A DNA stretch of 10,586 nucleotides from Bacteriovoracia bacterium (GCA_046570105.1 JBKHVI010000075.1:1-10586); one strand, 5' to 3'. Counted from the stretch's first letter, positions 2 through 10,586 are shown. Notes: generated by a model not told the origin, from the letters alone. Made by a program: numbers and translations.

Positions 2-1618
2 GATGCCATGCCTGGTAAACAAATGGCGATCGATGCGGATTTGAACGCTGGCCTAATCGATAACAACGAAGCCAAACGTCGTCGTGCTGAAATTGCGCAA
101 GAAGCAGATTTCTACGGTTCGATGGACGGTGCTTCGAAGTTCGTTCGAGGTGATGCTATCGCAGGTATTTTGATCACAGTGATCAATATCATCGGCGGTA
201 TTATTATTGGCGTGGCCCAACATGACATGGCGTTTGCCGATGCTGCTGAAACATTCACCCTACTAACCGTCGGTGACGGTCTTGTTGCTCAGATTCCTGC
301 TCTTATTATCTCAACTGCGGCCGGTATTATTGCCACTCGCTCTAGTAGCGGCAATGCTCTTGGTAAACAAGTTGGTGATGAATTCACGGTTCATCCGAAG
401 GCCTTCTACATTACAGGTGGAGTACTCGGCTTATTTGCCATGATTCCTGGTCTTCCTGGACTGCCATTCTTTGGCATTGCCGCTCTTTGTGGTTTTGCTG
501 GATACCGCATTGAAGTCACTAAGAAGAACGCTGAGATTGCGAAGAAGAGCGATGAAGTTAAAGAACAGAAATCCCATGGCGAAACGCTTGAAAGTCTCTT
601 GCCGGTGGAGTTGGTGCAGCTTGAAGTCGGTTACGGCTTGGTGAGCATTGTTGATGCTGATCAAAATGGCGATCTGCTCGAACGTATCTCACATCTTCGT
701 AAACAGTTTGCCACTGATTGGGGTCTCATTATTCCATCAGTTCGTATCAAGGATAATTTGGAGCTTAAGCCAGGTGGCTATTCTGTGAAGTTGAAAGGAA
801 TTGAAATTGCCAAAGGCGAATTGATGCCTGATCACTTCTTGGCGATGGATCCCGGAACAGTTATTGGTGAAGTGGATGGCGTAGAAACCAAAGAGCCCGT
901 CTTTGGTTTACCGGCCTTGTGGGTGACAGAAGATCTACGTGATGAAGCTCAGTACAATGGCTACACCGTGGTTGATCTTTCAACTGTAGTAGCGACTCAC
1001 TTAACAGAAGTCTTGAAAGCGAATCTGCATGAGTTGTTAGGTCGCCAAGAGTTGGTGCGCTTGTTGGATAATTTCAAAGAGGACAATCCTAAAATTGTGG
1101 GTGATCTCATTCCAGATATTCTTCCGATGGGAACAGTACTCAAAGTTATGCAGAATCTTCTACGCGAAGGAGTCTCTGTTCGTGATCTTCGCTCGATTCT
1201 TGAAACGATGGCAGAATTTGGGCCAACCACAAAAGATGCTGACACATTGACTGAGTATGTTCGTCAGGCGTTGTACCGTCAGATCACTGAACGTATCAAA
1301 GGTGCTCAGGGAGATATCCCACTCTTCACTCTTGATCGCACAGTTGAAGAGAGCATTGCTCGCTCGATTGTACGCTCTGATGGTCATGAACAACTCTCGC
1401 TTGATCCTAAGGTGACACAAACTATTCTCGCTGGTCTCAATGAAAAGATTGAAGAGGCCACCAATGCTGGGGAAAAGATGGTGGTACTTTGTTCACCTGT
1501 CATTCGTCGCCACTTCAAGCGCTTGACTGAAAAGTTCATTCCCAACCTGATTGTGGTCAGTCATAATGAATTAAGTCCTGAAATTAACATCCGCTCACTT
1601 GGTACCGTAAGGTTGTAG
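2..1618 (+). CDS. flhA: Flagellar export gate protein FlhA (5'-truncated by window edge)
   Basis: Frame is open from base 2 (GAT GCC ATG = D-A-M). It reads DAMPGKQMAIDADLNAG...EADFYGSMDGASKFVRGDAIAG (FHIPEP signature), then LLTVGDGLVAQIPAL, TM helices, and the cytoplasmic domain (LEVGYGL, EPVFGLPALW, GYTVVD, NLLREGVSVRDL). The ATG at 8 is internal. Neighbours flhF/flhG/fliA indicate the flagellar rather than the injectisome homologue. Confidence 0.97.
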   Translation, partial: DAMPGKQMAIDADLNAGLIDNNEAKRRRAEIAQEADFYGSMDGASKFVRGDAIAGILITVINIIGGIIIGVAQHDMAFADAAETFTLLTVGDGLVAQIPALIISTAAGIIATRSSSGNALGKQVGDEFTVHPKAFYITGGVLGLFAMIPGLPGLPFFGIAALCGFAGYRIEVTKKNAEIAKKSDEVKEQKSHGETLESLLPVELVQLEVGYGLVSIVDADQNGDLLERISHLRKQFATDWGLIIPSVRIKDNLELKPGGYSVKLKGIEIAKGELMPDHFLAMDPGTVIGEVDGVETKEPVFGLPALWVTEDLRDEAQYNGYTVVDLSTVVATHLTEVLKANLHELLGRQELVRLLDNFKEDNPKIVGDLIPDILPMGTVLKVMQNLLREGVSVRDLRSILETMAEFGPTTKDADTLTEYVRQALYRQITERIKGAQGDIPLFTLDRTVEESIARSIVRSDGHEQLSLDPKVTQTILAGLNEKIEEATNAGEKMVVLCSPVIRRHFKRLTEKFIPNLIVVSHNELSPEINIRSLGTVRL

Positions 1619-1622
1619 ACCA

Positions 1623-3095
1623 ATGTTTGTGAAGAAGTTTGAAGCTGACACTATTGATGAAGCGCTCAAAGCGGTTAAGGCCGAGTTGGGCCCTGATGCT
1701 ATCATTCTTAAAACCATCACCAACAAAGGTCTGAAAGGTGCTTTCAAAAAAAAGCGCATAGAAATCACAGCGGCGATTTCAGAGAAGAACTTTGATAAAA
1801 AAGCAAAGGTGGACAAAGTGCTCAACGAAGACCAAAAACGAGATTTCTACACTCGCGGTGCTGGCTCAATGAAAGCATCCATTGATGAGTATGCTCAAAG
1901 TCCATCTACTGCCGGTGCTGCTGGCTACGGACAAATTGGTCTTAATAAAGTGGTTAATCAACTGGCCCGTGGCAAAGCAGGCATTACTGAAGCTGCTAAA
2001 AATACTTCTCAGGCACTTCGCCAAGGTCTTGATGATTTTTTAGGTGAAGAAGATTTGGATACGGATGATGATGCACTCGAGGAGATCATTCCTGCTCGTA
2101 GAGCTCCTGCACCTCGCCCTCAAGAGTCTCGTCCTCAGCCGAGAGTTCAAGCGGCGCCACAGCCTGCTCCTGAGCCTCAGGCGCAGGGACTCTCAAGTGT
2201 AGCGCGCGAAGTAATTAATGAGCTTCGCCAAGAACTCAAAACACAACAACACCGCATCCAGCTCCTAGAGCAGCGTTTACATGAAATGGGACCTGCTCAT
2301 GCTGTTCAGGCCAGCGCTGATGCTAAAGGTATTTTTCAACTTCGCACCACGCTTAAGTCGCTCGAGGTTGATGAAGCCATTGTGATGGATCTGATTCGCA
2401 AAGCCGCTTATGAACTTTCCAAAGATGATTTGGAAAACACCGATGTCGTCTTTGAATTTGCTCTTCGTGAAATGACTCAATCTGTGAATGTGGCAATGCC
2501 ACTTTTCTCACGTGTAGAGGGCGATGAGCCAGTGGTAACGGTACTTCTGTCAGAAGCGGCCGCTGGTCAGAGCAGTATGTCGATGAAGATTGCTGTACTC
2601 AAAAAAGACGTCGAAATCATCCAGTACTCAACCGATGGTGGCCATCAGAGCGGGGCAGACTTTGCCGCTCAAGTATTTGGGCTAAAAACTCATCGCGCTC
2701 AGAATCCAGCGGAGATTGTTCAGCTCGCTCGTAAGTGCGTGGAAGCTGGAAAAAGTGTCTTGGTTGATCTGCGCCTGGCCAGTAAACAGCAGGATGAGAC
2801 GAAGAAATTTATTGAGTCGCTACGCCGTGGCTTCCACCATGTCGAAGTGCTTATCACGATCTCTGCGATTCATGGGGAACTTTATAACCGTAAAATTCTT
2901 TCCCGTTACAAGGAACTGGCAGACGGGCTTATAATTTCTCATGTGGATTTGTGTCTCAATTTTGGGGCGCTTTATAATGTCCACCGTGCTCATTCCAAGG
3001 TTCCGTTAAAGTTCTTTGGTACGGGTCCAGTTGTTCCAGACGACGTAGAGTCGGCAACAGCTGAAAGAATTATGGCAGGCTTGTTTCAGTTCTAG
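1623..3095 (+). CDS. flhF: FlhF-like flagellar biosynthesis protein, SRP-GTPase fold with degenerate GTPase motifs (490 aa)
   Basis: Lies between flhA and flhG. Typical FlhF N-terminus (MFVKKFEADTIDEALKAVKAELGPDAIILKT...IEITAAI), long disordered B-domain linker, and FlhF-like C-terminus (PLKFFGTGPVVPDDVESA). G1-G5 motifs are substituted (see findings). Confidence 0.88.
   Translation: MFVKKFEADTIDEALKAVKAELGPDAIILKTITNKGLKGAFKKKRIEITAAISEKNFDKKAKVDKVLNEDQKRDFYTRGAGSMKASIDEYAQSPSTAGAAGYGQIGLNKVVNQLARGKAGITEAAKNTSQALRQGLDDFLGEEDLDTDDDALEEIIPARRAPAPRPQESRPQPRVQAAPQPAPEPQAQGLSSVAREVINELRQELKTQQHRIQLLEQRLHEMGPAHAVQASADAKGIFQLRTTLKSLEVDEAIVMDLIRKAAYELSKDDLENTDVVFEFALREMTQSVNVAMPLFSRVEGDEPVVTVLLSEAAAGQSSMSMKIAVLKKDVEIIQYSTDGGHQSGADFAAQVFGLKTHRAQNPAEIVQLARKCVEAGKSVLVDLRLASKQQDETKKFIESLRRGFHHVEVLITISAIHGELYNRKILSRYKELADGLIISHVDLCLNFGALYNVHRAHSKVPLKFFGTGPVVPDDVESATAERIMAGLFQF
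2091..2186 (+). repeat. Pro/Gln/Ala/Arg-rich low-complexity coding segment in the FlhF B-domain linker
   Basis: Encodes PARRAPAPRPQESRPQPRVQAAPQPAPEPQAQ, with imperfect cctcag/cctgct recurrences. It follows an acidic tract (DDFLGEEDLDTDDDALEE). Confidence 0.6.
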
Positions 3096-3108
3096 TTCGT
3101 AAATGATT

Positions 3109-3160
3109 TGTATCCGCTTCCCTAGGATGGGGGAGCTGAGTAAGTGGATGTACAGGAGGT
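3109..3160 (+). promoter_or_regulatory. Structured flhG leader with four GGA motifs (candidate CsrA/RsmA sites) and Shine-Dalgarno AGGAGGT
   Basis: Hairpin 3116-3124/3128-3136 with a GGA loop, and outer stem 3109-3115/3146-3152. GGA occurs at 3125, 3132, 3146 and 3155. SD at 3154-3160. Confidence 0.5.
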
Positions 3161-3162
3161 AT

Positions 3163-4023
3163 ATGCAGAAGACCAGTGATTGGCTGATGTCATTCAGCCG
3201 AGGCCCGCGACTCGATTCTCGTCCCGCGGCTCCTATTTCTAAACCATCACATTGCGTGAAAGTTTCCGTGACCGGCGGCAAGGGTGGCGTAGGAAAAACT
3301 TCTGTAGCACTTCGCATGGCACGTGAATTAGCAGGACTCGGTCATCGTGTTTTGCTGATCGACTGTGACATGAATCTCTCGAATACCGCTATCAAACTTG
3401 GTCTTCCACTAGATGATACTTTTTGGAAATTGCTCTCGGCTGAGAAAGATTTCCGTGAGTGTGTGATTCAGCGTGATGGCTATGATTTGCTACCTGCCTG
3501 CAATGGCAACATCGAATTATTTGAGAGTGAAATGGCGTTTGATGAAATCATCATCGATATCATTTCAGCTCATGAAAATGAATACGACTGGGTTCTCTTA
3601 GATTGCCCAGCAGGATTGTCACGCGAGAGTCTCACACTCAATGCTTGGTGCGATCACCGCATTGTTGTCGTGACGCCTGATAAAAGTTCCATCACTGATT
3701 CATATTCACTCGTAAAAATTCTTCAGACTCGCTTCGGAATCAAAGAAAATCACCTTTTGGTGAACATGATTCAGAACGATCGCCAGTTCCAAAAGGTCGT
3801 TATGACCCTGAGTGAGACGATCGAGAATTTCCTTGGATGCCGGACTCACGTACTCGGTGGTTTGCGCAAAGTGGATGTTTCTGCCGAGGGATTTGATACT
3901 TTTTTCCTCTCTGAGACCGGAAGTGAGTGGCATAAAAATTTCTTCAAGACTGTGCAGAGTTTCGCCGAAAAATGGGGTGCCAGCAAGACCCGCCAACTGG
4001 ACCTTGAACAAGAAGTTCACTGA
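3163..4023 (+). CDS. flhG: MinD/ParA-family ATPase FlhG (FleN), flagellar number regulator (~286 aa; start uncertain: 3148, 3163 or 3187)
   Basis: Deviant Walker A GGKGGVGKTS (3274-3303), VLLIDCDMNLSN, LLDCPAG, VVTPDKSSITDSYSLVK and LLVNM. Lies between flhF and fliA. Start 3163 chosen because AGGAGGT precedes it, although the spacing is short. Confidence 0.88.
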   Translation: MQKTSDWLMSFSRGPRLDSRPAAPISKPSHCVKVSVTGGKGGVGKTSVALRMARELAGLGHRVLLIDCDMNLSNTAIKLGLPLDDTFWKLLSAEKDFRECVIQRDGYDLLPACNGNIELFESEMAFDEIIIDIISAHENEYDWVLLDCPAGLSRESLTLNAWCDHRIVVVTPDKSSITDSYSLVKILQTRFGIKENHLLVNMIQNDRQFQKVVMTLSETIENFLGCRTHVLGGLRKVDVSAEGFDTFFLSETGSEWHKNFFKTVQSFAEKWGASKTRQLDLEQEVH

Positions 4024-4049: not shown

Positions 4050-4835
4050 ATGTCGTCATTGACGAGTAAATTAAAAAACCTCAAAGACTACCGCAGCACC
4101 GTTGATCCTAAAGTGAAGGATGAAATCGTGCTCGAGTATGCTCCTTTGGTGAAATACATCGCGCAAAAGATTGCCTCGCGCTTGCCATCAAATATCGAGC
4201 TCGATGATTTGATGTCTTGTGGAGTCATCGGTTTGATGGACGCCATCGAGAAGTTCGATCCATCTCGCGATAACAAATTTAAAACCTACGCTGAATTTCG
4301 TATTCGCGGTGCCATTCTTGATGAACTCCGTTCACAAGACTGGGTGCCACGTTCTGTACGTGAGAAAGCGAAGCAAGTAGAGCGCGCATACGCCAAGCTT
4401 GATAAAGAGCTGGGTCGCCCGGCAACTGACGAAGAGATGTGTGTTGAGCTTCAGTGCAACATGGAAGAGTTCCATGACCTGATCAACAAGTCGAAGTCAG
4501 TATCTTTATTGAATATCGACGACACGGCTTCAATGGGCCGTGGTGATAAGAAGCTCATGGTGAACCTAATGGAGAATAGCCGTTCGGCCAATCCATTCTC
4601 AGCGGTAAACTATAAGCGTGCCCAAGACATCATCAAAGAAGGCATCAAAACCCTTCCGGAGAAGCAACGTTTGGTGCTCTCGCTCTATTACTTCGAAGAT
4701 TTGAACCTAAAGGAAATTGGTCAAGTTCTCGACGTGACAGAATCACGTGTCTCTCAGCTACACACTCAGGCGATTTTGAAGCTCAAAGCTAAACTTCGCA
4801 CTCAGTTCGATAGCCACGAAGACCTCGCTAGCTAA
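4050..4835 (+). CDS. fliA: RNA polymerase sigma-28 factor FliA/WhiG family (261 aa)
   Basis: Region 2: YAPLVKYIA...LDDLMSCGVIGLMDAIEKFDPSR...FKTYAEFRIRGAILDELRSQDWVPRSVR. Region 4: LSLYYFEDLNLKEIGQVLDVTESRVSQLHTQA. Good RBS and expected operon position. Confidence 0.97.
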   Translation: MSSLTSKLKNLKDYRSTVDPKVKDEIVLEYAPLVKYIAQKIASRLPSNIELDDLMSCGVIGLMDAIEKFDPSRDNKFKTYAEFRIRGAILDELRSQDWVPRSVREKAKQVERAYAKLDKELGRPATDEEMCVELQCNMEEFHDLINKSKSVSLLNIDDTASMGRGDKKLMVNLMENSRSANPFSAVNYKRAQDIIKEGIKTLPEKQRLVLSLYYFEDLNLKEIGQVLDVTESRVSQLHTQAILKLKAKLRTQFDSHEDLAS

Positions 4836-4860
4836 TTTCAAATTTCATTCGTAAATAGTG

Positions 4861-4891
4861 AACCCAGGGCCAGTCCCTGGGTTTTCATTTT
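4861..4891 (+). terminator. Rho-independent terminator of the flhA-flhF-flhG-fliA operon
   Basis: Perfect 9-bp stem AACCCAGGG (4861-4869) / CCCTGGGTT (4875-4883) with loop CCAGT, followed by T-rich TTCATTTT, 25 nt after the fliA stop. Confidence 0.85.
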
Positions 4892-4939: not shown

Positions 4940-7225
4940 ATGGAAGCGCGTACTCTCAAATTCACTCGTTGGCTCACTCATGGCATGTTGGCGATAAGTG
5001 CTGGCGGCATCATGGGTGTTGCGTGGGAATTGCAGCATACTTTGGCAAAAAAAGAGAGCTCAGAAGAAATCCAGTTCAAGCTGCGCAATAAGCTCGAGAC
5101 CATTCGCGCTAAAAATCCATTTAAAACTATTCATCGCTCGCTTGAATCAGTGCAAACCAACGATGCTCACGACAAACTCTCTAAACTCAACAAGTCTATG
5201 CAGTCGCTTGAATCGGAATTGGGTATTAAGCGTGGAGACGAGCTCGATAAAATTTTCCATGAACATAATCGTCTCATTCAAGAAGCAGCTGCTTTCTCAA
5301 AGCCGAAAGAATTGATTCAAACGCTTTCAGACAAAGTAGCACGCTTAGAATCTTTAGCTACGACTCGTCGTTGGGGTAATCTCACCAAAATGTCGCAACG
5401 GATGAAGGCGCGCTTAGGTCAATTGCAAATCAATGCCCGCGTAGAATCACCTTTAGTGCGTTTCATGGATAGTGACTTAACTGCCATGACTTCGCTTATC
5501 AAAGGCTCAACCCTCGAAGAAAAAGATAAAAATGAAGTGCTTCGTCAGTTGGAAGGAATTCGCCAAGAAATTTCTATGTTGCTGGATCTCCATCAAAGTC
5601 GCAAAGGCTTTACGGATCTTATCGAGCGCGCCGATGAAGCTGTCGGACGCTGGGCCGCTCGTGCAGATATGGCGGTTGGAACTCTCAAACATCGCGCCCA
5701 TGAAGCGGTCCTCAATTCGCTTCATCACTTATGGGCGATTGGCGTCTTTATTACCTTAGGTTGGTTCTTGGTGGGAGTGCTTTGGGCCATGGGGAAGCGC
5801 TCGCAACAGAAAATGCAAGACGACAATCTACTTGAGTTGTTAATGGAAGGAGTCTTGAGTGATCGTCCTATTTGGCAAAAACTCACCGGTCCCGCCCGTA
5901 GAGATGAACTCCAACATGCGATGAGAATTATCCGTAAGCGTATGGTGCTGGGTGAAGATTTTCAGGCCGCCATGCCGTTTGCCTCCGTCCTTATTAATCA
6001 TGAATTGAAACTCATTTGGGGAAATACTCTCTTCTGTGAGCAGTTTGGTATTGATGAGCAAGAACTCAGCCACGAATTCAATTCTTGGGAAAGTATTGTT
6101 GCTCGACTCTCTGGACCTGAAACTGATCCAGTAAAAGAAGCGCTAGAGACTTGCGCTCCTGGTACTTGGCAGGTCAAGTGGCAGATGGAAGATGGCGTAG
6201 CGATTCCTTTGGAAATGCATGTGTCTCCGATTGAAGGTAAAAAACATAATAAAATTCTCGTCGCCTTCTATCCGATGGCGATGATGCAAGATGCGATTCA
6301 ATCACAAGCACAGATTGTTATGGCACCCGTGCGCTTAGCATTGGATGCACTTGAGAATGAAAACTGGAGTATTGAAACGGAGAGAAATTTAGCGCCTCAA
6401 TGGCAGCAAGTGGGACTCTCGCAAGATTGGGAAAAACTCAGTCGCACCATTCATCGCATGGATCAGGCGAGAAACGATATTCTCTTGCAGGCACAGCGCT
6501 TAGAGAATGAGAAACACGATCAAATGAAAACCATTGCCGATCTCTCATCAGTATTAGAGCAGCGTGGAATTGCCATGCGCGCTCAAATGCAATCTCTAAA
6601 AGATGTCCGCGATAGCTTAGCGTCACTCGATCAATTAGGTGCTGATCTTGGAATGGAGCATGCTGCTCTTTTAACCAGTGCCAGAACTTTGATGAAGCGT
6701 TTTGATCATATCTATGAAGCTTCACGCTCCCTCAGTGATCGCATGGGACAGGCCAAAGATGCGGTTAGCCAGTTAGAAAAAACTAAGCTCGCTTATCGTC
6801 AGGGCAAACAAGATCTCCAAGAAACGAAGCAAGAAATGGTGCAACTCCACAACGCCTTCATCAATGTGCTTCCTGAAATGGATTTGAAGGCCCAAGAGTT
6901 GGCAGGTGAGATGAAAGACGCTCTCATGAAGCTCGATCGCGCTATCAGTCAGTTAGATAACAAAATGACAGGCTTTGATGTGCAAATTACCAAGCTTGCC
7001 ATGGCCTTTACCGGTCCTGTTCCTGAATTTGATCGTCACTTGGCCTCAATTGATGTGGCGGCCCACGAAAGAGTCGCCCAGGAAATTGCCCAGGCGATGC
7101 AAGAAGACCAAGAGTTGATCATTGAGCGTCTTAAAAAGTTAGTTGATGAATTGCGCAGCGATACCCAGCAGTGTATAAGTGCGCACAAACTTCAACTGAG
7201 CACGGATCTCACTGATCATACATGA
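4940..7225 (+). CDS. Hypothetical two-TM membrane protein with periplasmic helical domain, cytoplasmic PAS-like domain and long coiled coil (chemoreceptor-like architecture, 761 aa)
   Basis: Long ORF. Hydrophobic segments at aa ~11-29 and 264-285. PAS-like pattern at aa ~340-445 (AMPFASVLINHELKLIWGNTLFCEQFG...WQMEDGVAIPLEMHVSPI...ILVAFYP). Heptad-rich helical C-terminal ~270 aa. The ORF is secure; the function is inferred. Confidence 0.7.
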   Translation: MEARTLKFTRWLTHGMLAISAGGIMGVAWELQHTLAKKESSEEIQFKLRNKLETIRAKNPFKTIHRSLESVQTNDAHDKLSKLNKSMQSLESELGIKRGDELDKIFHEHNRLIQEAAAFSKPKELIQTLSDKVARLESLATTRRWGNLTKMSQRMKARLGQLQINARVESPLVRFMDSDLTAMTSLIKGSTLEEKDKNEVLRQLEGIRQEISMLLDLHQSRKGFTDLIERADEAVGRWAARADMAVGTLKHRAHEAVLNSLHHLWAIGVFITLGWFLVGVLWAMGKRSQQKMQDDNLLELLMEGVLSDRPIWQKLTGPARRDELQHAMRIIRKRMVLGEDFQAAMPFASVLINHELKLIWGNTLFCEQFGIDEQELSHEFNSWESIVARLSGPETDPVKEALETCAPGTWQVKWQMEDGVAIPLEMHVSPIEGKKHNKILVAFYPMAMMQDAIQSQAQIVMAPVRLALDALENENWSIETERNLAPQWQQVGLSQDWEKLSRTIHRMDQARNDILLQAQRLENEKHDQMKTIADLSSVLEQRGIAMRAQMQSLKDVRDSLASLDQLGADLGMEHAALLTSARTLMKRFDHIYEASRSLSDRMGQAKDAVSQLEKTKLAYRQGKQDLQETKQEMVQLHNAFINVLPEMDLKAQELAGEMKDALMKLDRAISQLDNKMTGFDVQITKLAMAFTGPVPEFDRHLASIDVAAHERVAQEIAQAMQEDQELIIERLKKLVDELRSDTQQCISAHKLQLSTDLTDHT

Positions 7226-8052
7226 GAGATTTTCAATTTAAGGCCATCAAAGAGAGTGAGCGTTTACAGGATGCTCTCACTCGGGTCACCAAATATCCCC
7301 CCGACGTTCTAACGGCGATGTTGAGCTATGGCGCTGTTCAAGTCCGCTTTCGTGGTATTGGTCCCTGGGAGCGAGTGCGCGATGGTCGCTTAAGTCTTCA
7401 TCCGCAAGATCAAGCGCGTGCTCACTACGACAGTAAAATTCTTTTATTGCCCGCCTTTAATAACGCTGAATGCATCAGCGAAAATCGTGACTATGGTGTA
7501 TGGATCAAACCAGCGGGTGTTGTTTCACAAGGCACTGATGCTGGCGACCACTGCTCGCTTCTTTATGCTGTTACAAAGGCGGGAAGAACTCCTTTCCCGG
7601 TTCATCGCCTTGATCGTGAAACTGAAGGTTTGATGGTTATTGCTTATCACTCAAAAGCTGCTGCTGAACTTTCGCGCTTGTTCCAAGAGCAGAAAGTCCA
7701 AAAAACATATCTCGCTATCGTCGCCGGCGACACTTCTGGCCTAAATGATCAAGGCCTTATCGATGAAAACCTTGATCGCAAAGTCGCTCAGACAAAATAC
7801 AAAGTGATTCAGAAACTTCCTGAGGGAAGACTTCTTGTAGAGCTCAAACCCATCACCGGGCGCCTTCACCAAATCCGTCGCCACCTCGATCTGTTAGGTT
7901 GTGGCGTCTGGGGTGATCCAAAGTACGGTAAGGGAAATAAGAACCGCGAAGGGATGAAATTGGCCGCCATTGGCCTCGAATTCTTTGATCCATGGGACAA
8001 AGGTCCACGTCATTTCCACTACAAGGCCAGCTTCGCTCTTTCTTCGACCTGA
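7222..8052 (+). CDS. RluA-family RNA pseudouridine synthase (276 aa)
   Basis: Motifs KPAGVVSQ, VHRLDRETEGL (catalytic Asp; HRLD at 7603-7614), KTYLAIV, TGRLHQIRRHL and GDPKYG. ATGA overlap with the upstream stop. Confidence 0.93.
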   Translation: MRDFQFKAIKESERLQDALTRVTKYPPDVLTAMLSYGAVQVRFRGIGPWERVRDGRLSLHPQDQARAHYDSKILLLPAFNNAECISENRDYGVWIKPAGVVSQGTDAGDHCSLLYAVTKAGRTPFPVHRLDRETEGLMVIAYHSKAAAELSRLFQEQKVQKTYLAIVAGDTSGLNDQGLIDENLDRKVAQTKYKVIQKLPEGRLLVELKPITGRLHQIRRHLDLLGCGVWGDPKYGKGNKNREGMKLAAIGLEFFDPWDKGPRHFHYKASFALSST

Positions 8053-8127: not shown

Positions 8128-8134
8128 AGTTTTG

Positions 8135-9643
8135 ATGATCGTGCGTAAATTTATCGCCGTTCTCACTTTAGGCCTTCTCTCGCTGAGCGCCGTAGCTGCT
8201 ATTTCAGAAGAGCACCTGGCCTCTCGTCTTAATGAACTAGAAAAAATTTCTGTGCTTGATCATGCTGCATTAAGAAGACAAGCGACTTATGAAATAAAGA
8301 ATTGGTCGATCGAAGAGCGCGCCTTCGCTGAAGCGACTAAGCTTTTAGAAGAACTGCGTTTTGCAGTTATACGTGGTCATGAACAGGCGTTGAGCGAATT
8401 AGGTGATGTAGATGCCGCTCGCGCTCAATTGCGCGCCAATATGGAAAAAGACATTCATCTAGTAGATGAAAGTCTGCGTGATGATGTTCGTCAGATTGTA
8501 GAAGATGTTCTGCAAAGTTCAACTCCTCAGTCTATTAAGCTTCATCCTACGGATCGCCTGGTGCAGTCAATGAAGGTGCGCGCAGCTCAGATGCAGACGC
8601 TCCTTACGCAAGCTCCACAAGAAGCAGTCGTGACCAATGAAAAATTAAGTGATTCTCGTCCTATTCGTGAACTTATGCAGGATAGATTTGGCGAGATTGA
8701 TCACGACAGTAAAGCGGCCCTGCTAAAAGCGTTAGTAGATGATCAAAGTCAGTCTGAGCGCTGGGTTTCAACTTCCAACATGACTGCTCGTTCGGCCAAT
8801 CAGCGTGGTTATGAGTCAGAGTTTTCTGCGCAAGTGTCAGCTGAATTCATGGGAGTGAGAGTTTCTGCCGGTCCAACTTTTAAATTCAAAAAATATGTCA
8901 CCACATCAGTTGATATGAAAGGTGAGGGTCTTTATCCTTTGTTTGATGCTCAAGGGAAATTCGATTTAGTTCTGCGTGACGCTGCCGGCAATCCACGTAA
9001 AATCGATGGAAAAACAGCACGTCGTTTCATCTTCTTCACTTGTGAAGTAGAAACGGAAGTAGAAAGTGAAATCGCTGCAGGCGGTGGCTTTAAAGTCGCG
9101 GGCCTGGGTGCTGAAGGAAAAGTTGTTGCGAAATATTTCACCAGTATCAGCTCTAACTCTCGTCGTGCGCTTGTTCCAAGCACGATTGATGGCCGTCAGG
9201 TGATCCTCTCGACATTGGCCAAGATTTGTCATCGTGATTTTATGAACACCAAAATCTCTAATGGCAAAACCGTGCTACAAAACCAAGAAGTGATGGTGAA
9301 AAATATCGCCTCTGGTCTCACTTATGTAAATCCAGCGATGAAATGTGTGACGGATAATCATTGCGTAAATTGGTTTAATCGCGAAGTCATTTGGCTTCAC
9401 AAGATCAACACCACACCTCGCTGTGTGCAGGATAAATCAAGTCCCGACCTGATGACCTGTCAGTTAAGAGGGGTCGCGAAAGCTGCTTGTTCGGTTTATC
9501 AAGAAGGCAAGCGCGTCTCTTCAGGCATGTTTGAGTACACCTGTAATACGGGTTACAAATGTGTCATCACTCATGAGGGCGGCTGGTTTCAAAATTGGGA
9601 AATGTGGGATCCGTGGCGCGCTGAATGCCGCAAAGTTCGATAA
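8135..9643 (+). CDS. Secreted hypothetical protein (502 aa): signal peptide, helical N-domain, beta-rich core, Cys/Trp-rich C-terminus
   Basis: GGAG at 8126-8129 then ATG 8135. Sec-type signal MIVRKFIAVLTLGLLSLSAVA|A. All 10 Cys lie in the C-terminal ~200 aa. Confidence 0.8.
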   Translation: MIVRKFIAVLTLGLLSLSAVAAISEEHLASRLNELEKISVLDHAALRRQATYEIKNWSIEERAFAEATKLLEELRFAVIRGHEQALSELGDVDAARAQLRANMEKDIHLVDESLRDDVRQIVEDVLQSSTPQSIKLHPTDRLVQSMKVRAAQMQTLLTQAPQEAVVTNEKLSDSRPIRELMQDRFGEIDHDSKAALLKALVDDQSQSERWVSTSNMTARSANQRGYESEFSAQVSAEFMGVRVSAGPTFKFKKYVTTSVDMKGEGLYPLFDAQGKFDLVLRDAAGNPRKIDGKTARRFIFFTCEVETEVESEIAAGGGFKVAGLGAEGKVVAKYFTSISSNSRRALVPSTIDGRQVILSTLAKICHRDFMNTKISNGKTVLQNQEVMVKNIASGLTYVNPAMKCVTDNHCVNWFNREVIWLHKINTTPRCVQDKSSPDLMTCQLRGVAKAACSVYQEGKRVSSGMFEYTCNTGYKCVITHEGGWFQNWEMWDPWRAECRKVR

Positions 9644-10291
9644 TCATTTAACCAGAGCAAGCCAGAGATCTTTAAGCGCCTGATCCATTTCCATTCCGGG
9701 TGGGCGCGTATTATCAAATACCAAATCGGCTTTTTTCTTCTTCTCATCTAACGAGAGTTGCGCCGATAAAATAGCATCAGCGGTACTCGCGGTGGTTAGC
9801 GGATCACGAGAGAGCAAACGCTGCTTTTGAATCTCAACTGGAACCCAGCTTACGACCACCACATCAAATAATTCCTGCATGTTTCTTTCAAATAGCAAGG
9901 GGATCTCATACACCAGCCACGAGACATTTCCTAAAGCTTTCAAGCGATCTTGAAACGCCTGAGGCAAGCGTGCATACAAGAAATTCTCCACTTCAACTTT
10001 CAAAGTTGCATCTTGAAAAACTTTTTCGCGCAATTTTGCAAATAACACTTCACCATTCTCCAAAACATCGGGAGCAAGGGCCGTCAGCCAAATTTTCGTC
10101 AATGGCCAGCGATAGATATCCTTAATCAAATCATCCGCAGAAATCACTGCCACGCCTTGCTCTTTAAAAAACTTGGCGACCGTTGATTTTCCCGAAGCGA
10201 TTCCACCCGTGAGTGCCACGATAGGGAAGTCACACCCATAAAGTCTGGCGGCCGCTTTTAATTTAATCCACTTCGGCTGCAGCTCACTCAT
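9644..10291 (-). CDS. coaE: Dephospho-CoA kinase (215 aa)
   Basis: VALTGGIASGKSTVA P-loop, ISADD, LREKVF, YEIPLLFE, QKQRLLSRD, AQLSLDEKKKKADLVFDN. Start at 10291 preferred because it gives an ATGA overlap with the mazG stop and is preceded by AAGGTGG. Confidence 0.94.
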   Translation of the reverse strand: MSELQPKWIKLKAAARLYGCDFPIVALTGGIASGKSTVAKFFKEQGVAVISADDLIKDIYRWPLTKIWLTALAPDVLENGEVLFAKLREKVFQDATLKVEVENFLYARLPQAFQDRLKALGNVSWLVYEIPLLFERNMQELFDVVVVSWVPVEIQKQRLLSRDPLTTASTADAILSAQLSLDEKKKKADLVFDNTRPPGMEMDQALKDLWLALVK

Positions 10292-10586
10292 TTGGTCGCC
10301 ACCTTCGCTTTGACCCATAACTCTTCCATCTGCTCATGAGTCATCTCGCCCATCTTAAGTCCGCTCTCTTCAGCGACTTTTTCCAGATAGTGATAGCGCT
10401 TTAAAAATTTCTGATTGCCACGACGAAGGGCCTCTTCCGGTTCAACGCCTAAGTGGCGGGAGAGTTGCGCGACACTGAAGAGTAAATCACCGATTTCTTC
10501 GGCCACTCGCTCTTTATTAAAATGCCCACCGGGTGGAAGCTCGTCTTTTAGCTCCTGCCACTCTTCTTCTACTTTATGCATGACCT
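10288..10586 (-). CDS. mazG: Nucleoside triphosphate pyrophosphohydrolase MazG, C-terminal part (5'-truncated by window edge)
   Basis: KVEEEWQEL...EEIGDLLFSVAQLSRHLGVEPEEALRRGNQKFLKRY...MEELWVKAK matches the C-terminal MazG domain. The frame is open to the window edge. Confidence 0.92.
   Translation of the reverse strand, partial: VMHKVEEEWQELKDELPPGGHFNKERVAEEIGDLLFSVAQLSRHLGVEPEEALRRGNQKFLKRYHYLEKVAEESGLKMGEMTHEQMEELWVKAKVATK

Follow-up and report, generated by a model that had tools for sequence, protein, structure and literature searches.

A 10,586-nucleotide stretch of DNA from Bacteriovoracia bacterium (GCA_046570105.1 JBKHVI010000075.1:1-10586; the whole stretch is called the window below) encodes, at positions 1623..3095 on the plus strand, a 490-amino-acid protein that is an orthologue of FlhF, a GTPase of the SRP (signal recognition particle) type, by descent and fold and that is catalytically degenerate. 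The protein scores below the FlhF family cut-off and lacks the G1, G2, G3 and G4 patterns of a GTPase, but it has the gene position, the FliG-interacting domain (FID), the NG fold and the G5 loop of an FlhF. Named homologues point to Bacteriovoracaceae/Halobacteriovoraceae (Bdellovibrionota) as the family of the window, which is labelled f1 in our taxonomic sample; other families carry labels of the same kind. We propose that f1 FlhF, the sole FlhF of its family, is a tether from FliG to the cell pole that is dead for hydrolysis and may still hold a guanine nucleotide in its pocket, and we give this reading a probability of roughly one half. The parts of the proposal differ in strength: judging from the residues, GTP hydrolysis has very probably been lost, and the odds that a guanine nucleotide is still bound are about even. 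Cells of this family probably place their flagellum without the textbook GTP switch.

Gene, fold and G motifs of FlhF

The gene order, established from open reading frames (ORFs), profiles and synteny, is flhA-flhF-flhG-fliA. An ORF open at the window start (2..1618, plus strand) is the 3' part of what we take to be flhA from its sequence and position, and a flhA homologue adjoins flhF in 79 of 80 related loci; on the other side lies flhG/fliA. Besides the flhA part and flhF, the window contains the MinD-type ATPase gene flhG, then fliA and another five genes. The flhF product begins with an FID-like head (amino acids 1-53; 1623..1781), continues with three helices (amino acids 54-92) and a variable linker (amino acids 93-232; 1899..2318), and ends with an NG domain of the SRP-GTPase fold (amino acids 233-490; 2319..3092), all on the plus strand. 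The linker had the highest non-synonymous divergence (dN) of the four protein parts against 10/10 relatives. No Pfam family matched the 490-amino-acid protein even at E 1, and the FlhF profile TIGR03499 reached 57.3 bits, over amino acids 1-269 only, against a cut-off of 174.15. Pfam often misses genes of this type, and their annotations may read hypothetical protein or active GTPase.

When the PDB was searched by sequence with this protein, no SRP protein was returned, the best FlhF row being 9EN1 at E 0.15; the G domain is linked to FlhF by fold searches only. An AlphaFold2 model of amino acids 233-490, built on a 113-sequence alignment (predicted local distance difference test score, pLDDT, 95), was compared with 48,161 representative chains. 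The best matches to this predicted structure were the FlhF chains 8R9R (Z 25.0) and 2PX0 from B. subtilis (Z 24.3), both with a root-mean-square deviation (rmsd) of 2.5 A over 242 residues and with 14-16% identity to these solved NG domains. FtsY, SRalpha and Ffh followed at Z 19.5-22.7, after which scores dropped to 13; Foldseek matched the model to 8R9R at E 3.7e-14. A second model, of amino acids 1-95 (pLDDT 90.5), was closest to 9EN1, the FID of Shewanella FlhF (rmsd 1.2 A over 45 residues, 38% identity; Z 6.3, a modest value because the domain is small), which was also its top Foldseek row (E 0.009). The FID is the best-conserved part of FlhF, with a median identity of 87% within the family and 45-58% to other families. 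An earlier reading made from the window's sequence alone (the sequence-only reading) had named the protein an FlhF with preserved motif order, N-terminal domain and reading frame, and had proposed the profile search and the superposition on B. subtilis FlhF as checks; both predicted models agree with it.

Re-reading of the ORF also gave the residues that had been assigned to four of the motifs: G1 SEAAAGQSS at amino acids 310-318 (nucleotides 2550-2576), G3 DLRL at 382-385, G4 SHVD at 439-442 and G5 GPVVPDD at 468-474. For comparison, 183 distinct FlhF proteins from fetched loci were aligned and two cut ones (L024, L073) were dropped, leaving 108 of the f1 type and 73 from 18 other families. 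The 108 family-type loci are biased to close relatives, and some were labelled by homology and not by taxonomy (L044 and L078, for example, bear other titles); free of this bias are the genome counts per family given below and the 20 lowest-scoring f1 matches, which had Gln at position 316 in 20/20.

The G1 remnant, S-E-x-x-x-G-Q-[ST]-[ST], together with the invariant K322 spans 2550..2588. The GxxGxGK[ST] pattern was found in 0/108 family-type loci (SEAAAGQS in the window), and the P-loop Lys is replaced by Gln at position 316 in all 108, versus Lys or Arg in 73/73 of the other-family loci (Lys in 72, Arg in one). G315 and K322 are each present in 108/108 loci and S/T317, the residue after the lost Lys, in 103/108; position 311 (E311 in the window) is acidic in 104/108. 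From the former G2 and insertion-box region (2610..2657) the catalytic Asp and Arg/Lys are gone: the strict G2 pattern occurs in 0/108 loci and a loose one in 2/108, compared with 67/73 in other families. Its loop is about five residues shorter and unconserved, and the alignment puts the canonical G2 Asp at S336, at the end of a strand, and not at D338 as had been claimed. In the G3 remnant D-x-[RK]-x (2766..2777) Asp382 is kept (106/108), Gly is lost (present in 2/108) and a new base stands at 384, with Lys or Arg in 102/108 loci versus 0/73 in the others. The G4 remnant [ST]-H-x-D (2937..2948) retains D442 in 108/108 and S/T439 in 99/108, and its Lys has mostly become aromatic (H/Y/F440 in 96/108; Lys/Arg in 2/108). 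The closing G5 loop, G-x-x-[VI]-P-[DE]-D (3024..3044), is largely intact, with G468 and P472 in 108/108 and D474 in 107/108; the G5 Gln is present in 2/108, and is also replaced in 7/8 of the f9 loci, which keep the P-loop Lys. All of these elements lie on the plus strand. The statement that all five G motifs are degenerate is thus right for G1-G4, which fail their patterns, and too strong for the nearly intact G5; the G4 Asp, the G3 Asp and G315 are kept as well.

Of 113 proteins in a wider alignment, most of them representatives at 50% identity and with conservation weighted, 107 had Gln at residue 316, two had Lys and four had something else (weighted frequency of Gln, 0.89). The ten most conserved G-domain positions were G315, K322, N452, D442, G468, P472, S414, D474, D382 and A478, against a median conservation of 0.43 per position, and eight of them (G315, K322, D442, G468, P472, S414, D474 and D382) lie in or beside G motifs. 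S414 opens a family-specific conserved patch, S414-I-H-S-E-x-Y-N422. The P-loop Lys is present in two family-type proteins, P0169 and P0206; the first of these is placed within the clade of degenerate forms, a position suggestive of a reversion.

Occurrence, descent and selection

The taxonomic sample comprised 400 Bdellovibrionota genomes, of which 100 were f1. The window's FlhF profile matched 99/100 f1 genomes, and a canonical FlhF (TIGR03499, E<=1e-30, five candidates scored per genome) was found in 0/100. The same test was positive in 52/53 f9, 52/57 f14, 21/27 f13, 18/20 f4 and 7/34 f6 genomes, and f1 was the sole sampled family without a P-loop Lys. The second, canonical flhF for which a search had been suggested was likewise not found in the window's own genome (87.8% complete), which yielded no other FlhF; SRP54 matched it twice, in a 393- and a 439-amino-acid frame with GxNGAGKTT and DTAG, and these read as FtsY and Ffh. 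One of the 108 family-type loci, L160 (G305:C56), is a Bacteriovoracaceae-type flhF on a 4.9-kb contig of an f21 genome with a canonical flhF of its own, and is probably binning contamination.

In a tree of head and NG domain the degenerate forms (37 f1 rows and 10 unlabelled proteins) lay on one side of one branch with a Shimodaira-Hasegawa-like approximate likelihood ratio (SH-aLRT) support of 100, and their stem was long (some 1.6 changes per column). A tree of only the N-terminal 95 residues (18 rows) again put them on one side of a branch (100/100). Because both trees show a single branch, the 108 loci reflect one event; neither tree resolved the sister group of f1 FlhF.

The ratio of non-synonymous to synonymous substitution rates (dN/dS) of the G domain was 0.047 at the median and nowhere above 0.19 (Nei-Gojobori, 35 disjoint pairs picked by shared 12-mers, dS 0.05-1.5). 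Between the window and 10 relatives it was 0.04-0.13 in the seven unsaturated comparisons. Orthologues share the motif loss at a dN/dS well below 1, a combination that the sequence-only reading had named as a check. Among the matches listed, Q316, D382, H440-V441-D442 and P472-D473-D474 were identical in 120/120, and all had open frames. An independent sequencing run, X5, covers 2462-2906; the 16 differences in the G region among those listed were all synonymous (13 in X5 alone, 3 in RNA runs) and none fell in G1 codons. Three RNA runs contained only short pieces as contigs (share 0.08-0.13), which does not show transcription.

FlhG, its leader and neighbouring genes

The partner gene flhG encodes 286 amino acids at 3163..4023 (plus strand). 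The longest ORF would start at 3103, but the family alignment begins at 3163, and an extra base (T) behind 3106 in all four sequencing runs compared supports the later start. The Gln of the FlhG helix DQAxxLR stimulates FlhF, according to parts of PMC12826062 and of bioRxiv 2022.03.19.484964. This helix was found in 0/103 FlhG proteins beside degenerate FlhF; in the window the N-terminus M-x-K-T-S-[ED]-W-L stands in its place, and x-[TAP]-S-[ED]-W-L occurs in 101/103. By register, Gln occupies the activator position in 0 or 1 of these 101 proteins. Lys stands two residues after Met in 67/101, the position being otherwise N, S, R, D or others. A K/Q swap between FlhF and FlhG, with the Lys supplied in trans, was considered and rejected, since this position is Lys in only 67/101. 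The ATPase motifs KGGVGK, DxD and DxxxG are invariant (K40, K45, D67, D69 and D147 in 98/98). At the C-terminus (3990-4023 in the window) an acidic E-[QH]-[DE]-V-H replaces the amphipathic QFFW-type tail, presumably a membrane-targeting helix, the W of which is present in 28/41 of other families.

DQA was also missing from FlhG in f9 (0/8), f13 (0/4), f6 (0/7), f23 (0/6) and f28, and judged by these genes the FlhF-FlhG switch is eroding across the phylum. At L224, L227 and L232 (f14, f15) a long FliA-like protein of 341-403 amino acids directly follows flhF; the FlhF motifs at L232 are canonical. In genus g13 no FlhG was found anywhere in three genomes (L236 = G113, L237 = G182, and G318; best match E 1e-17). 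The g13 FlhF is shorter (349-375 amino acids), keeps Q316, K322, D382, S414, D442, G468, P472 and D474 in 3/3 genomes, and has changed E311, R370, R384, R402, D473 and R482 in the same three. Although it counts as one event, this pattern is a hint that FlhG is not what the pocket is kept for, and that the residues changed in g13 may mark where FlhG docks.

The flhG leader (3096..3162, plus strand) contains a predicted hairpin with GGA in its loop (3116-3136) and a second one over the ribosome-binding site, which we infer to be CsrA-type sites. The motif CAGGA[TC]G upstream of the flhG ribosome site was present in 44/100 f1 leaders, from kin that are not independent, versus 0.4 in shuffles, and in 0/38 leaders of other families. 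GGA lay in a hairpin loop in 8/8 folded leaders, which were picked partly for the motif; the stems vary in sequence while the GGA loop is fixed, and csrA was present in 5/5 genomes tested. The less strict pattern A.GGA showed no enrichment in these leaders (18 vs 24.5), and in stability their folds did not clearly exceed shuffles (z -0.7 to -1.9). Flagellar number may be controlled through FlhG, by way of CsrA-type control of its translation.

Downstream of flhG, fliA (sigma-28; 4050..4835, plus strand) scored above the TIGR02479 cut-off. It is followed by a terminator-like hairpin (4860-4884), a kind of site that was not above chance (7 found, 6.0 expected), and by orf761 (4940..7225, plus strand; placed by synteny), a 761-amino-acid membrane protein of no known family with a transmembrane segment, a PAS-like domain and a long coiled coil. 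It was found after fliA in 61/68 loci, the seven misses having at most 1.2 kb of room, and in 100/100 f1 genomes against 0/300 others (E 1e-8). It is shortened to about 640 amino acids in g13, which lacks FlhG. Proteins of like size, transmembrane layout and position after fliA occur in f23 and f33, with canonical flhF; they are probable distant orthologues (HHalign 83.6%, E 8e-6; single-sequence comparisons weak). The idea of orf761 as a purpose-built replacement landmark is weakened by these proteins, and because of them orf761 is only a candidate FlhF partner.

Among known polar factors, the FimV C-terminal domain was found in none of 4 f1 genomes, nor in the f9 control (5/5 without a match). 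DUF2802, the domain of FipA (parts of PMC11620751), was found in none of 67 f1 genomes. DUF2802 proteins were present in f9 (34/35), f13 (15/18) and f28 (6/6), but their absence is not diagnostic because f14 (0/34), f23 (0/6) and f21 also lack them. FliG was present in the family genome(s) searched. The remaining genes are a pseudouridine synthase (7222-8052, PF00849), coaE (9644-10318, PF01121) and, at 10288-10584, what we take to be a MazG-like fragment. Between the first two lies a protein of 503 amino acids (8132-9643) with a signal-peptide-like start, a Cys-rich C-terminus and no Pfam match above cut-off, present in 29/80 related loci.

Mechanism, rival explanations and known systems

In Shewanella, as parts of PMC11236974 describe, FlhF tethers FliG through its FID to the landmark HubP through its NG domain; the contact between NG and HubP is nucleotide-independent, and the tether is believed to be released by hydrolysis that FlhG stimulates. 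In f1 FlhF the two ends of such a tether have been kept; by analogy, its FID would capture FliG and the NG domain would dock at the pole on a partner, where assembly of the MS- and C-rings would then start. A lone polar flagellum is described for Halobacteriovorax isolates (parts of PMC12724312), and the Halobacteriovorax locus L086 carries degenerate FlhF. The GTPase cycle and its FlhG trigger would have been lost once, in the family ancestor, through the replacement of the P-loop Lys by Gln, the removal of G2 and the loss of the G3 Gly and the FlhG Gln. The guanine, alpha-phosphate and Mg sides of the pocket would have been kept, most likely for a static guanine cofactor (GDP, GTP or similar). 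If there is no GTPase cycle, release and number control must come from elsewhere, and the candidates would be the intact ATPase of FlhG, the remodelled W-L helix of the same protein and translational control of flhG of the CsrA type.

The case for a seated nucleotide comes from the pocket. Since the residues on its guanine, Mg2+ and alpha-phosphate sides are the best conserved, even in g13 without FlhG, binding without hydrolysis appears at least as likely as no binding, and on these residues we place it (class ii in the scheme given in parts of PMC5593906) slightly ahead. The nucleotide-independent scaffold proposed by the sequence-only reading therefore stands in part: the fold is kept without recognisable catalytic machinery, but the strong conservation on these three sides weighs against independence of nucleotide. 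According to parts of PMC6092412, V. cholerae FlhF is cited as needing GTP binding and not hydrolysis, and parts of PMC12713375 describe P. aeruginosa FlhF as similar. The V. alginolyticus mutants T306A, D439A, T436M and E440K lack flagella, those with G299A, G304A, K305A, D377A or K437A have fewer, and G380A has little effect (parts of PMC6092412); Vibrio FlhF with K311A gives few flagella (parts of PMC5774409). Mapped by motif position, and not by alignment of the Vibrio sequence, S317, S439, D442, K322, G315 and D382 are kept in the window, and the counterparts of G299, K305, G380, K437 and E440 are gone. Three of the four null positions (T306, T436, D439, E440) keep the canonical residue or have Ser for Thr, whereas the lost ones include G299, K305, G380 and K437, at which a mutation in Vibrio merely weakened flagellation or was tolerated.

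Several observations weigh against the proposed tether or its seated nucleotide. Nucleotide binding is usually poor where a P-loop lacks its Lys, and Lys occurs at 316 in 2/113 diverse homologues. The remaining Vibrio null position, E440 (null as E440K), corresponds to L443 in the window, and the B. subtilis trans-dimer contacts K318, E321 and T184 (parts of PMC5774409) map to H440, L443 and A312, all changed. On the side of FlhG, 32/49 other-family proteins also lack DQA next to an FlhF with its P-loop Lys or Arg in place, so the loss of DQAxxLR is not specific to f1. Among 20 regions read, no flhG lay between flhF and fliA at L224, L227, L232, L236 and L237 (f14/f27/f15/g13-type). The searches for FimV and DUF2802/FipA yielded no polar partner of FlhF. 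The retained Asp, Gly and Pro could be structural, or part of a dimer or partner surface; E311 and R/K384 could fill the phosphate site, or could instead help to hold phosphate.

The last two points belong to the rival that survives best, one that we take seriously although we do not expect it to hold. Here f1 FlhF would be a class i pseudoGTPase whose NG domain binds no nucleotide: E311 and R/K384 would fill the phosphate site and the aromatic residue at 440 the base site, the rim would be a constitutive dimer or partner surface, and the tether role would be the same. This would account for the lost P-loop Lys with its positively kept Gln (weighted frequency 0.89), for the change of both the first and the fourth P-loop Gly, and for the family-specific acid at 311 and base at 384, both lost together in the three g13 genomes. 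In p190RhoGAP pG1 the nucleotide site seems to be hampered by a salt bridge (parts of PMC5593906). Against this rival, the residues that rank highest in conservation in f1 FlhF include the G4 Asp, those of the G5 loop, S/T317, K322 and D382; the G4/G5 regions of pG1 and AAGAB no longer support guanine binding (parts of PMC5593906 and PMC12490416).

More doubtful is a wider proposal, in which the whole FlhF-FlhG module would have been rebuilt without a GTPase step. A pseudo-FlhF, state-locked or sensing an unhydrolysed guanine nucleotide (GDP, (p)ppGpp, c-di-GMP), would tether FliG to a new polar partner, possibly orf761; FlhG, devoid of the activator Gln and the membrane tail, would dock via its W-L helix and its amount would be set by CsrA, giving one polar flagellum. 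If this were true, that flagellum would arise in a way for which there is no earlier description.

It is distinctly improbable that f1 FlhF is a slow GTPase (class iii) in which R/K384 replaces the P-loop Lys and the FlhG N-terminal helix or another partner gives a catalytic group. The base at 384 (102/108 vs 0/73 outside), the kept Mg ligands S/T317 and D382 and the conserved FlhG N-terminal helix with its Lys in 67/101 are compatible with it; but the G2 Asp, the Arg/Lys and the G3 Gly are gone, the FlhG position varies among K, N, S, R, D and others with Gln in 1/101, and g13 has neither a base at 384 nor FlhG. Less credible still is a redeployed FlhF that serves another polar task of these predators, or acts on FliG as a chaperone only, and takes no part in flagellar placement. 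The long stem branch, the family-specific patch at 414-422 and the absence of the FimV C-terminal domain (0/4) and of DUF2802/FipA (0/67) would suit such a change of role, yet the gene has kept its flhA-fliA position, the FID is the best-conserved part of the protein, and DUF2802 is missing too where FlhF is canonical (f14 0/34, f23 0/6). Recent decay, a pseudogene or a sequence error, which the missing Pfam match and the missed TIGR03499 cut-off might suggest and which the sequence-only reading had named as what would overturn it, is excluded by the same changes in 120/120 among the matches listed and in 108/108 loci, the dN/dS of about 0.05, the open frames in all matches listed and the synonymous differences in the independent run.

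Read as a hydrolysis-dead tether, f1 FlhF would be an experiment of nature on whether a tether by itself, with nucleotide bound or not, is enough for polar placement and number control. Parts of a review of December 2025 (PMC12826062) present FlhF/FlhG as a conserved GTP switch and remark that species differ in how far they need its GTPase activity; published FlhF point mutants disagree. No description of a natural motif-less FlhF was found in the full-text literature (mostly open-access articles, main texts), and the main text of a comparative genomics paper on the phylum (PMC11656739), in the parts available, has no 'flh'.

With canonical FlhF (TIGR03499; S. putrefaciens 8R9R and 9EN1; B. 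subtilis 2PX0) the f1 protein shares gene order, FID head, variable linker, N domain, G fold, the G4 Asp, the G3 Asp and the G5 loop; unlike it, f1 FlhF has Gln for the P-loop Lys, no G2 Asp/Arg, no G3 Gly, and replacements of the G4 Lys and the following Glu. Its partner resembles FlhG/FleN, as described in parts of PMC12826062, in being a MinD-type ATPase directly downstream with its ATPase motifs kept, and differs in having a W-L helix for the enhancer Gln and an acidic end for the membrane-targeting tail. Other Bdellovibrionota FlhF proteins are partially eroded, with the G4 Lys lost in f9 (0/8) and f28 (0/2), the G3 Gly and G5 in f6 and G2 in f15, but unlike f1 they keep the P-loop Lys (72/73; Arg in one). 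The erosion in f9, f13, f28, f6 and others is independent and partial (L191-L204, L209-L220).

By the definition in parts of PMC5593906, a GTPase fold with missing G motifs that is evolutionarily conserved, f1 FlhF is a pseudoGTPase. It resembles p190RhoGAP pG1/pG2, CENP-M and AAGAB (class i) and Rnd (class ii) in keeping the fold with G motifs lost and in serving, as we propose, as an interaction module (parts of PMC5593906 and PMC12490416). The pseudoGTPases named in these passages are almost all eukaryotic and none is of the SRP family. Unlike them, f1 FlhF has a conserved guanine side of the pocket, and it would be an SRP-family pseudoGTPase, a kind absent from the passages on pseudoGTPases in both articles.

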